A stretch of DNA of 64,000 nt from Candidatus Kaiserbacteria bacterium. GTDB lineage: Bacteria; Patescibacteriota; Minisyncoccia; Phycocordibacterales; UBA2100. Position numbers and translations under genes: made by a program. Below the pieces are notes generated by a model. That model saw nothing but the letters and a program-made list of their open reading frames with translations, did no database searches and was not told the origin of the DNA. Each line of letters begins with the position of its first letter. The stretch's first letter is position 1. Shown in pieces: positions 6,857 through 9,257 of this stretch. The stretch lies in NCBI GenBank assembly GCA_016186765.1, contig JACPLD010000001.1:133647-197646 (forward strand). The letters run 5' to 3'.

Positions 6857-8208
6857 TGTTTGCTGTTCACTTCCTGTATGCTGCCTTTCATGTAAAATGC
6901 CTGCTCGTTTTGCGCATCGTGTTTGCCCGCCAAAATTTCTCCAAAGCCACGAATGGTCTCAGCAAGCGTCACATACCTGCCCTTCGCCCCGGTAAATGTC
7001 TCGGCTACGGAAAAAGGCTGCGAGAGGAAGCGCTGGATCTTTCTCGCTCGATACACCAACCGCTTGTCTTCCTCGGAGAGTTCTTCGATGCCTAGAATCG
7101 CGATGATGTCCACGCGGTAGTGCTCCTCGCCGACGATTTCTGGCGTGAGCGCGGTCGAACCAGAATCAAGAGGATCAATGGCAGGATAAATGCCGAGTGA
7201 CGCAAGCTGCCGCGAAAGCACGATGGTTGAGTCGAGGTGCGAGAATGTCGTTGCAGGCGCGGGGTCGGTCAAGTCGTCTGCGGGCACGTAGATGGCCTGC
7301 ACGGAGGTGATGGAGCCTTCCGTCGTCGAGGTGATGCGCTCCTGCAAAAGTCCCATTTCTTCAGCAAGCGTCGGCTGATAGCCCACCGCCGATGGCACGC
7401 GACCGAGAAGTGAGGATACCTCGGAGCCCGCTTGCACAAAGCGAAACACATTGTCCATGAAAAAGAGTACGTCCTTGCCTCCTTCGTCGCGAAACGCTTC
7501 CGCCATCGTAAGCCCGGAGAGCGCGACGCGCGCGCGCGCGCCGGGCACTTCGTTCATCTGGCCGAACACAAGAGCGGTCTTGTCCAAGACGCCAGATTCT
7601 TTCATTTCGTGATAGAGGTCGTTTCCTTCGCGCACGCGCTCGCCGACGCCAGCGAAGACCGAATAGCCGCCGTGCTCTGTCGCCACGTTGTTGATGAGCT
7701 CCTGAATTAACACGGTCTTCCCCACACCCGCACCTCCGAAGAGCCCAACCTTGCCTCCTTTAATAAAAGGCGCGAGAAGGTCGATAGCCTTGATGCCCGT
7801 TTCGAATACTTCCGCCTTCGTGCTCTGTCGCACAAATTTCGGGGGGTCTTGGTGAATCGGCAAACGTTTCGCTTTTTCGGGAGCTTTCATGCCGTCTATC
7901 GGATCGCCGACGACATTGAACATCCTGCCGAGCGCAGGTTTACCGACCGGTACTGCAATCGGAGCACCTGTGTCGATCACCTCTGCCTCGCGCGCGAGGC
8001 CTGCGGTATCCTGCATCGCAATGCAGCGCGCGCGGTTGAGCCCGAGATGCTGAACAACTTCCAGTACCAAGGTCCGATCTTGGGATCCCTTAAGGTCGGA
8101 CCTTAAAGAAATGGTCAGCGCATTTTTTATTGGTGGCAGTCCCTCATCAAAACGCACGTCAACAACGGGACCTATGATCTGCGTGACAATGCCTTTGGAC
8201 ATATTCAA
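6853..8208 (-). CDS. atpD: F0F1 ATP synthase subunit beta
   Basis: 451 aa; Walker A GGAGVGKT; the near-invariant beta-subunit stretch runs over most of its length. Confidence 0.95.
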
Positions 8209-8630
8209 AAGTTGAACGGATTATACCCAGCCTCGACAAAACTTCTAGTGGACAGAAAGAGCGGTTCGGGCAGCGCGTCCCAAGCGAACCACTCCCACGA
8301 TGAGAACTTATCCGGCTCAGTAAGCGACGCTTCTCCGGCCTTCCAATCCGCTGCCAGGAAAATCGTGGCATAGTGCGAGCCGTGCGCAGGATCGACATCA
8401 TTGGTAATGCCAATGAAGCGGATATTCTTTATCTCGATTCCCGATTCCTCTCGTGTCTCTCGTACGGCGCATTCCTTCCAGTCCTCGTAGAGCTCGAGTT
8501 TGCCGCCAGGAAAGCACCATGTGTCGGAACGGTATCCTCCCTTTCTATACCCCAGTAGCACTTTGCCTTCGCGCATCACGCAAATGCCCACGCCGACACC
8601 CGGATATAGCATAGGATACGTCACGCTCAT
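8205..8630 (-). CDS. NUDIX hydrolase (MutT-like)
   Basis: 141 aa; Nudix box [23 protein letters not shown]; 4-nt ATGA-type overlaps with rdgB upstream and atpD downstream. Confidence 0.85.
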
Positions 8631-9226
8631 AGAAATTCTGCTATGAGGATCTCTCTTGCTTTTGCGAGCGCTCGGCCGCGATGGCTATAGCGATTCTTTT
8701 CCTCGACGGACATTTCTCCGCCGGTTTTGCCAGCTTCATCGTAGAGAAAAATCGGATCGTAACCGAACGATCGCTCGCCTCTCGGTTCACGTGTGATGTG
8801 GCCATATACTTCTTCGCGGCACGTTTTTAGATCTCCCCTCGCTGGATCGTAGATAGCGATCACCGTAACGAATCGCGCCGTTCTCTTTTCATCAGGAACA
8901 TCCTTCATCGCATCAAGCAGCTTTCTGTTTCTGTCGGCATCAGTGCCCGGTACGTACCGAGCGCTCTGTATGCCGGGAGCGCCGTCGAGCGCATCCACTT
9001 CGAGCCCCGAATCGTCGGCAAGCGTGAGCATACCAGCCTTCGTTCCGTATTCTCTCGCCTTGATGACCGAGTTTTCCTTGAATGTCGCGCCTGCTTCCTC
9101 CGGTTCGAATCCTTCAAGCTCCGGTACATGGTTGATGTCAATGACGTTGAACGGAACCCCTTCAAACGCATGGCGTATCTCCGGCATCTTTCCCTCGTTC
9201 CGAGTCGCGATAAGTAATTCTCTCAT
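8627..9226 (-). CDS. rdgB: non-canonical purine NTP pyrophosphatase (dITP/XTP pyrophosphatase, RdgB/HAM1 family)
   Basis: 199 aa MRELLIATRNEGKMPEIRHAF...ADDSGLEVDALDGAPGIQSARY, characteristic of the Ham1/RdgB family. Confidence 0.85.
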   Translation of the reverse strand: MRELLIATRNEGKMPEIRHAFEGVPFNVIDINHVPELEGFEPEEAGATFKENSVIKAREYGTKAGMLTLADDSGLEVDALDGAPGIQSARYVPGTDADRNRKLLDAMKDVPDEKRTARFVTVIAIYDPARGDLKTCREEVYGHITREPRGERSFGYDPIFLYDEAGKTGGEMSVEEKNRYSHRGRALAKAREILIAEFL

Positions 9227-9227
9227 G

Positions 9228-9253
9228 CCCTAGTGGCTATACCCTAGTGGCTA
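9228..9253. repeat. CTAG-rich direct-repeat element (ccctagtggctata x2) between the atpG stop and the rdgB start
   Basis: ccctagtggctataccctagtggcta. The same module recurs at 12275..12299 and, inverted, at 22051..22113. Confidence 0.7.
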
Positions 9254-9257
9254 ACGA

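Follow-up and report, generated by a model that had tools for sequence, protein, structure and literature searches.

What are two genes for nucleotide-hydrolyzing enzymes doing inside an ATP synthase cluster, between the genes for the gamma and beta subunits of F1? The question is raised by a 64-kb stretch of DNA, here called the window, from Candidatus Kaiserbacteria (Patescibacteria, also known as the candidate phyla radiation, CPR), a tiny uncultured groundwater bacterium. The list of open reading frames (ORFs) and a Pfam scan give the minus-strand order atpB-atpE-atpF-atpH-atpA-atpG-rdgB-nudix-atpD-atpC. This is the order reported by the first-pass annotation of this DNA, whose view that two enzyme genes within the F1 genes are a non-canonical placement is confirmed. 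The linkage characterizes a Kaiserbacteria subclade and is no chance feature of this one genome. On balance, we consider it probable that rdgB and a NUDT15-like nudix gene encode intact house-cleaning nucleoside triphosphate (NTP) pyrophosphatases that were captured at the gamma/beta junction in this clade and kept there by selection.

The two enzyme genes and their junctions

The rdgB gene (8627-9226, minus strand) encodes a protein of 199 amino acids (aa) from the RdgB/HAM1 family. The protein matches PF01725 (E=3e-58; 197 bits against a cut-off of 22.5) and exceeds the cut-off of TIGR00042 (166.8 bits against 145.35), so the rdgB identity proposed earlier holds at the family level. An HMMER alignment with the E. 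coli RdgB structure 1k7k (E=1e-37) brings the motifs NxxK (ATRNEGK), DDSG (ADDSGLEVD), FGYDP (FGYDPIF) and SHRG (SHRGRAL) into register. The window protein belongs to the same family as E. coli RdgB (YggV), HAM1 and ITPA, its catalytic motifs align with theirs, and the same chemistry is presumed for it: that of a non-canonical purine NTP pyrophosphatase, converting inosine, deoxyinosine or xanthosine triphosphate (ITP, dITP or XTP) to the nucleoside monophosphate (NMP) and pyrophosphate (PPi). The genomic setting is where the window gene and its E. coli counterpart differ. rdgB usually lies next to rph or in a yggSTUVW cluster and not within atp operons, whereas the window rdgB is inside the atp cluster.

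The downstream gene, nudix (8205-8630, minus strand), encodes a 141-aa protein that matches PF00293 (E=2e-22) and in which the Nudix box, GX5EX7REUXEEXGU, can be read directly and is intact. The earlier description of it as a MutT-like NUDIX hydrolase is right as to the NUDIX family and imprecise as to the subgroup. The protein falls far short of the MutT equivalog thresholds (33.8 bits against a cut-off of 97.9 for TIGR00586; 29.7 against 148 for PRK10776), and its nearest solved structures are human NUDT15 (7b64/5bon; E=1.2e-26 over residues 9-140) and Arabidopsis NUDX1 (E=7e-25). In the protein database it is 43% identical to a rodent NUDT15. The likeness to human NUDT15 (MTH2) and plant NUDX1 extends over the full length and includes both the Nudix box and a C-terminal GY(N/D)PF motif that is common to NUDT15 and NUDX1. 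In an alignment of the window subfamily, the N-terminus is conserved and the C-terminal motif reads GYNP. The long start that we use for nudix is backed by an N-terminal 'VTYPM' that homologs retain; the NCBI product has 135 aa and is 6 residues shorter. The window protein differs from NUDT15 and NUDX1 in being bacterial, in its length of 141 aa and in that its last codons appear to double as the promoter of the next gene. We presume that it is best labeled a NUDT15-like (d)NTP diphosphatase. Plant NUDX1 also hydrolyzes non-nucleotide diphosphates, so NTP sanitation should be taken as the most likely activity of the NUDIX protein rather than an assured one.

The gene directly upstream of the insert is atpG, for F1 gamma (9258-10172, minus strand; PF00231, E=6e-80). 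Its TAG stop is followed by a spacer of 31 nucleotides (nt; 9227-9257, minus strand) and then by the ATG of rdgB. The rdgB stop and the nudix start share an ATGA at 8627-8630 (minus strand), a true 4-nt overlap without a Shine-Dalgarno sequence. This overlap, a junction typical of translationally coupled gene pairs, had been claimed in the first-pass annotation and proved correct; the same 4-nt overlap is present in two relatives (loci L168 and L169). The annotation had also placed a 4-nt ATGA overlap between nudix and atpD, and this one most likely does not stand, as it needs a non-conserved TTG start at 8208 and would then read TTGA rather than ATGA. The nudix stop, TGA, occupies 8205-8207 and is separated by 2 nt from an ATG at 8202, giving a TGA-at-ATG junction. 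Since that ATG matches the MSKG start of all four aligned relatives, it is most likely the start of atpD (F1 beta; 6853-8202, or 8208 with the TTG start; minus strand). A true ATGA overlap of nudix with atpD does occur in four relatives (L001, L085, L166 and L168).

We considered whether the layout could be an assembly oddity and rejected the idea. For both the AtpG and the NUDIX protein, NCBI has identical entries from Candidatus Kaiserbacteria, each recorded from 7 contigs (the record for AtpG reads 'ATP synthase F1 subunit gamma [Candidatus Kaiserbacteria bacterium]'), and the layout is repeated in independent assemblies. No paralog of rdgB or nudix was found elsewhere in the 64-kb window. 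A search of the available literature found no description that pairs rdgB or a NUDIX gene with an ATP synthase operon, or of atpG/atpD insertions, and the paper on the ProAD database does not discuss insertions. The conserved arrangement has apparently not been described before; the enzymes and ATP synthase themselves are well known.

Recurrence of the linkage and other cargo among relatives

We compared 160 atp loci for which an atpG alignment was available, drawn from one genome per species and from metagenomes, and looked up close relatives besides. Loci are referred to by L numbers. The clade was defined by an atpA at least 72% identical to that of the window and comprised 19 loci with both atpG and atpD; 118 loci lay outside it. 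The look-up of one relative (P0009) stopped at a contig edge, so it yielded no junction. More than 150 nt separated atpG from atpD in 13 of the 19 clade loci and in 30 of the 118 others (43 of 137 atpG-sampled loci). An inosine triphosphatase (ITPase) gene, a window-type NUDIX gene or both were present in the F1 cluster of 11 of the 19 clade loci; outside the clade, an ITPase gene was found there in 2 of 118. The comparison of atp operons that the first-pass annotation had called for therefore shows a layout that recurs in the Kaiserbacteria clade.

The content of the atpG-atpD interval varies among these loci. Where atpG is 91% identical to that of the window (L163) it consists of a Ham1 gene, and at 90% identity (L161) of a gene for an uncharacterized 120-aa protein and a Ham1 gene. 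L081 (89%) has genes for a membrane protein, an MNT/HepT toxin-antitoxin pair, an uncharacterized 117-aa protein, RdgB and NUDIX. L086 (56%) carries a second NUDIX gene together with RdgB and NUDIX, while L001 and L085 (71% and 58%) carry NUDIX only. RdgB accompanied by small uncharacterized proteins is found in L003, L007 and L109 (53-57%), and a truncated RdgB remnant with NUDIX in L005 (55%). Starting from the window NUDIX protein gave an agreeing result: all four homologs with 60-67% identity that we looked up sit between atpG and atpD (L166-L169), and three with 41-53% identity lie outside that interval. One of the more distant homologs (41%), in another Patescibacteria genome (L172, 1-4420), lies about 2.3 kb downstream of atpD-atpC, past murA and mreB. 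Its position near the atp cluster, and not inside it, may be a coincidence.

RdgB is one of three types of ITP/XTPase that occupy the F1 clusters of different lineages, the others being a divergent Ham1 and YjjX. In L006, a YjjX-type inosine/xanthosine triphosphatase (PF01931; TIGR00258 above cut-off) lies directly upstream of NUDIX in the atpG-atpD slot, and in L049 a YjjX homolog (701-1234) lies between atpA and atpG. The same removal of ITP and XTP is presumed for YjjX as for RdgB, yet the fold of YjjX is unrelated and the window has no YjjX gene; that YjjX uses the same slot speaks for non-orthologous displacement. Relatives have insertions at a second place, the atpA-atpG junction, where L003 (6206-6985) and L085 (4211-4996) carry a gene for a YfbR-like HD 5'-deoxynucleotidase, L024 (1263-1670) a NUDIX gene and L166 (2100-3065) one for a 321-aa protein without a Pfam match. 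L024 also has a gene between atpG and atpD whose product weakly resembles nucleoside deoxyribosyltransferases. When the junction ORFs were clustered all-against-all, the NUDIX and Ham1 clusters were the two largest. We argue from this recurrence through several unrelated families, in genes that make up a tiny share of a genome, that the linkage is under selection. The loci are phylogenetically related, and independent gains of junction enzymes would not be rigorously countable. The suggestion that house-cleaning is tied to ATP synthase expression fares accordingly in two ways: the linkage of the genes is conserved in the clade and recurs with non-homologous enzymes, while the tie at the level of expression is one that the gene order would imply.

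The F1 junctions are also insertion hotspots that take in a wide range of other cargo. MazF/PemK-like genes occur at junctions in six loci, and in L021 such a gene adjoins the divergent Ham1 gene in the cluster. Further cargo includes a SET-domain protein, 23S-rRNA-IVP-like four-helix proteins, small membrane or acidic proteins and many singletons. The toxin-antitoxin-type genes that we located in the atp clusters of relatives are the MNT nucleotidyltransferase and HepT RNase pair of L081 (2197-2876) and solitary MazF/PemK-like genes in L021 (7903-8295), L060 (7912-8298), L047 (2922-3365), L167 (3406-3858) and L119 (4511-4897). In L003, L007, L081, L161 and L169, a helical ORF without a family match (about 105-120 aa) lies between atpG and RdgB; these ORFs did not cluster with one another by BLASTP.

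Expression of the insert and the remaining features of the cluster

Compared with the canonical atpIBEFHAGDC operon of the E. coli type, the window has all eight structural genes in the same order on one strand. It differs in being split at atpG/atpD and at atpB/atpE, in having no Shine-Dalgarno sequences and in an epsilon subunit without its C-terminal domain. As a single operon, the cluster has the canonical order and a common direction but is not contiguous, being interrupted by two foreign genes between atpG and atpD and by a 636-nt gap between atpB and atpE. In a terminator scan, the region from atpG to atpD gave no convincing candidate. The single weak terminator-like hairpin in this region lies inside rdgB and is within the expectation from shuffled sequence, and a consensus promoter and terminator scan gave no significant excess. 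An Rfam scan of the whole window returned tRNAs only, and none of its matches was an RNA element of the spacer or operon. From this layout we infer that rdgB and nudix are co-transcribed with atp genes.

A promoter-like element is visible in the 3' end of nudix as a patch of synonymous-site constraint (8220-8249, minus strand). Within the last 45 nt of the gene it consists of ACTAGA (8249-8244), 18 further nucleotides and TATAAT (8225-8220), and its end is 17 nt away from the atpD ATG. The GGGTATAAT box that lies 17 nt before the atpD ATG, within nudix, codes for G-Y-N; the same box lies 18 nt before the atpA ATG, within atpH. In a codon-by-codon alignment of NUDIX genes, synonymous codons are mixed except at ACT (8/8), AGA (8/9), TAT (9/9) and AAT (11/11). 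All nine NUDIX genes that have the GYNP motif use the codons TAT-AAT, with a joint probability of 4e-9, the product of the codon-usage probabilities of the single loci on the assumption that these are independent. TATAAT in nudix is thus held beyond what the protein requires, as other conserved residues use mixed codons. A relaxed form of the pattern, TAGA-N17-21-TATAAT, has 14 matches in 3.3 Mb of strand sequence, of which nine are these NUDIX ends. A similar cluster of constraint was sought at the 3' end of rdgB and none was found, hence there is no promoter-like signal there.

Loci without the cargo point the same way. L082 has no NUDIX gene and retains a NUDIX 3'-end remnant, 'TATAATCCTTTC', before atpD, in a 93-nt spacer that ends '...ATATATAATCCTTTCGTTAT ATG'. 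Cargo-less clade loci keep a -10-like TATACT, TACAAT or TATAAT before atpD. Altogether, a -10-like box precedes atpD in 16 of 21 clade loci, as against 1-3 for atpG and atpC. Upstream of atpA, 9 of 25 clade loci have an exact TATAAT; the corresponding number is 0-1 for each of the genes atpE, F, H, G and C. In the window, atpA is preceded by GGGGTATAAT in the 3' end of atpH (TATAAT at 11768-11763), 18 nt before its ATG. Internal promoters before atpA and atpD are probable on this evidence.

The half of the nudix element that contains CTAG is of interest in its own right. The window has 51 CTAG tetramers where about 243 would be expected from base composition, a five-fold under-representation, and 43% of them lie in the 11% of the DNA that is intergenic, often in CTAGAA(T) or CTAGGG upstream of genes. 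As CTAG is avoided in coding DNA, its conservation within nudix stands out. The gene starts of the window fit a signal so close to a start codon. None of the atp genes has a Shine-Dalgarno sequence, and gene starts in the window generally do without one. Many genes instead have TAGAAT, TATACT or TATAAT 5-18 nt before the start codon, for example at 33350 (minus strand), 51879 (plus strand) and 25900-25925 (plus strand), and a textbook TTGACT-17-TATAAT occurs at about 33.35 kb. This suggests that many mRNAs of this Kaiserbacterium have no leader or a very short one.

Taken together, atpD and atpC probably have their own predicted promoter in the 3' end of nudix, and the gamma/beta junction would then be a transcription-unit boundary. 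The translational coupling of nudix to atpD that had been claimed is, given the frozen TATAAT and ACTAGA in the 3' end of nudix, probably not what drives expression of the beta subunit. A comparable break is known elsewhere. The atp clusters of cyanobacteria and chloroplasts are split, with atpB-atpE (there encoding beta and epsilon) separate from the genes up to gamma. The break point between gamma and beta is the same, and beta and epsilon appear to have their own promoter here too. The parts of the window cluster differ in that they remain adjacent and co-directional and that the break is filled with cargo; the independent beta-epsilon transcript would be the shared feature that we predict.

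The 31-nt spacer upstream of rdgB, where the first-pass annotation had placed a CTAG element, carries the AGCCACTAGGG motif twice in direct orientation. Its GGGTATAGC is -10-like but degenerate and copies GGGTATAAT imperfectly. The AGCCACTAGGG motif occurs 8 times in the window, with 0.5 occurrences expected, and the repeat family to which the spacer belongs (D8) has further copies at 12275-12304 and 22089-22118. As a dispersed family built on (T)AGCCACTAGGGTATAG, with direct and inverted copies, it spans 9228-9252, 12213-12304 and 22047-22118. The copies are always in short spacers between co-directional genes (atpG-rdgB, atpF-atpH and a pair at about 22.05-22.12 kb). The family looks like repetitive extragenic palindromic (REP) elements or miniature inverted-repeat transposable elements (MITEs), with one part resembling the GGGTATAAT box. 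A small hairpin, with its end at the rdgB AUG, is predicted for the spacer (-17.8 kcal/mol, z=-2.9); the folding of the other copies of the repeat was not significant. In two close relatives, L161 and L163, the spacer is missing and atpG is followed by the next gene after 1-3 nt. We rejected the spacer as a unique promoter or operator because it is a copy of a dispersed repeat and absent in close relatives. It may attenuate or weakly promote the expression of rdgB.

The rest of the cluster also lies on the minus strand and was assigned by Pfam: atpB (13627-14367), atpE (12763-12990), atpF (12289-12738), atpH (11748-12212) and atpA, for F1 alpha (10176-11744). No atpI was seen in the cluster. 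The gap between atpB and atpE (12991-13626) comprises 636 unannotated nt of lower GC content, compared with about 70 nt in L161 and L163, so the Fo part of the cluster is interrupted as well. ORFs of about 122-125 aa overlap in it on both strands, and the two ORFs of the gap had no Pfam match. It also contains a TATAAT at 13573 and two TAGAAT boxes upstream of atpE. The match of the atpH product to the OSCP model is confined to the C-terminal part of the model; the product also has an extra C-terminal tail that repeats a ...YN(R/K)... ending, with a GC-rich palindrome. The atpC gene, for F1 epsilon (6537-6788, minus strand; 83 aa), matches PF02823 alone. Its product has the N-terminal beta-sandwich domain and no C-terminal helical domain, as in relatives (81-89 aa).

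The window atpD has an in-frame deletion of 15 aa (45 nt), corresponding to 'ANETRRVLQRYKDLQ', at 7108-7113 between V364 and D365. The deleted segment is present in all four aligned relatives and lies just before the conserved DIIAILG segment. The deletion could be a real variant, a minority allele of the population or an assembly artifact. Downstream of atpC on the minus strand are genes for two large proteins (3315-5054 and 5114-6478) with hydrophobic N-termini that resemble signal peptides. They share a similar C-terminal domain (...RGNP..VSWSSVG...TLxC...) and have low-complexity linkers. In relatives, an unannotated protein of 600-720 aa is encoded at the same position.

Explanations and significance

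In the account that we consider probable, rdgB and nudix would form the tail of the atpA-atpG transcript. Ribosomes would reach rdgB after the 31-nt spacer without a Shine-Dalgarno sequence, and nudix would be translated by termination-reinitiation at the ATGA overlap, which is itself observed. atpD-atpC would be driven mainly by the promoter in the last 45 nt of nudix, and read-through may add to this. If the junction is a boundary between transcription units, genes could be inserted there without breaking beta expression, which would make it a landing pad. Among the genes that arrive, those whose products remove non-canonical or surplus purine nucleotides and deoxynucleotides (RdgB, divergent Ham1, YjjX, two NUDIX types and YfbR-like enzymes) would be preferentially retained. 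The likely benefit would be constitutive expression matched to that of ATP synthase in a small, regulator-poor genome. Bacteria of this group are not known to make nucleotides themselves and depend on salvaged ones.

Several observations count against this account. Eight of the 19 clade loci have no such cargo, so the linkage is dispensable, and the unrelated cargo at the same junctions means that much of what they contain has nothing to do with nucleotides. The identities of RdgB are out of step with those of atpG: the window RdgB is 55-58% identical to the proteins of L161 and L163, though atpG there is about 90% identical, and 75-76% identical to those of L081 and L109, with an atpG identity in L109 of 53% over the matched part. 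This discordance points to an insert that was exchanged or replaced rather than simply inherited vertically, and it fits a recombination-prone cassette site. As for the promoter, the figure of 4e-9 treats as independent nine loci that are related. The -35-like half (ACTAGA/CTAGAA) matches TTGACA at only 2 of 6 positions, and the site was not reported by the consensus scan. TATAAT is 11-27 nt away from the atpD ATG, farther than at the starts that most clearly look leaderless (5-8 nt). As a protein motif, GY(N/D)P is ancestral in the NUDT15 family, which leaves codon choice alone to argue for a signal at the DNA level. Finally, the unit boundaries, the promoter activity and the coupling are all read from sequence.

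Much of this would suit neutral hitch-hiking, in which rdgB and nudix landed once at permissive hotspots and were then inherited, lost or swapped without any selective tie. Gaps of more than 150 nt are frequent across the sampled loci and their cargo is very varied, cargo has been lost in several clade members (L082 with its NUDIX remnant, L005 with its truncated RdgB), and the discordance between RdgB and atpG is what such a history would leave. Hitch-hiking does not readily explain why at least five nucleotide-hydrolase families recur at F1 junctions and supply the two largest cargo clusters despite their tiny share of the genome, nor why divergent loci conserve both the ATGA overlap of rdgB with nudix and the overlap of nudix with atpD. 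We think it unlikely, though plausible enough to be kept in mind. A direct link to F1 would go to the other extreme: RdgB, NUDIX and sometimes YfbR would clear ITP, XTP or damaged GTP that is made by ATP synthase or disturbs it, which would need stoichiometric co-expression or association. The premise is an F1Fo that, with its epsilon subunit lacking the C-terminal domain, may run mainly as an ATPase. F1 does accept ITP and GTP as substrates, purine-NTP enzymes are found repeatedly among atpA, atpG and atpD and not among the Fo genes, and epsilon is reduced to its beta-sandwich domain in the window and in relatives. Yet neither fusion proteins nor interaction evidence for RdgB or NUDIX with F1 was seen among the loci examined, the cargo is missing from the eight clade loci, and the junction takes clearly unrelated cargo too. 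To our knowledge, the same enzymes are free cytosolic house-cleaners in all organisms studied. A direct link is decidedly improbable.

Two further explanations turn on the spacer and on the neighboring cargo. rdgB and nudix could be a two-gene operon with its own promoter in the CTAG spacer, nested between atp units and untied to them in expression. The degenerate GGGTATAGC of the spacer does resemble the GGGTATAAT boxes before atpA and atpD, CTAG is strongly avoided in genes and enriched between them, and the genes lack Shine-Dalgarno sequences and look leaderless or short-leadered. Nevertheless, the invariant final T is missing from the -10-like hexamer, the element belongs to a dispersed repeat found also at atpF-atpH and at about 22.05-22.12 kb, the 1-3 nt that follow atpG in close relatives leave no room for a promoter, and there is no convincing terminator after atpG; a separate unit is very improbable. 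That the junction is a defense island, gathering anti-phage and toxin-antitoxin cargo with Ham1 and NUDIX acting in nucleotide-based immune signaling, would accommodate the MazF-like genes and MNT/HepT modules at the same junction in relatives. RdgB is weakly similar to the HAM1-like KomB (E=7e-8), and NUDIX matches a candidate single-gene PADLOC model (2e-11). These similarities lose their force beside a RdgB that exceeds the housekeeping equivalog cut-off, aligns with E. coli RdgB at 1e-37 and has no PADLOC match, and a NUDIX match no stronger than general NUDIX similarity would give. In the window, neither gene adjoins partner genes of known defense systems, and we find this explanation barely credible.

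A bolder reading can be imagined, and we offer it as a speculation that is quite unlikely to be right. In this clade of ultra-small and probably symbiotic bacteria, F1 and a purine-nucleotide 'exclusion pathway' might form one functional module, in which ITP, XTP and dGTP-type NTPs would be converted to monophosphates and, through YfbR in some lineages, to nucleosides. ATP synthase, possibly working mainly as an ATPase with its truncated epsilon, would make non-canonical purine NTPs or be poisoned by them, and the enzymes would be kept in fixed proportion to F1 by families that differ from lineage to lineage. The promoter of the beta subunit in the NUDIX coding sequence, held by synonymous-site selection, would be a second novel element.

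What is new here is a conserved and recurrent physical linkage in an uncultured lineage with reduced genomes, whose physiology is readable only from genomes. The window also gives a first view of the start rules of a Kaiserbacterium, with no Shine-Dalgarno sequences and with -10 boxes near start codons, and the promoter-like element frozen in the NUDIX coding sequence is a testable case of a sequence that carries coding and regulatory information at once. Should the link be selective, a clean purine pool would be a core need tied to energy metabolism, and a position inside a housekeeping cluster could replace dedicated regulation. The gamma/beta junction would then be a natural seam of the atp cluster, echoing the split seen in cyanobacteria and chloroplasts.

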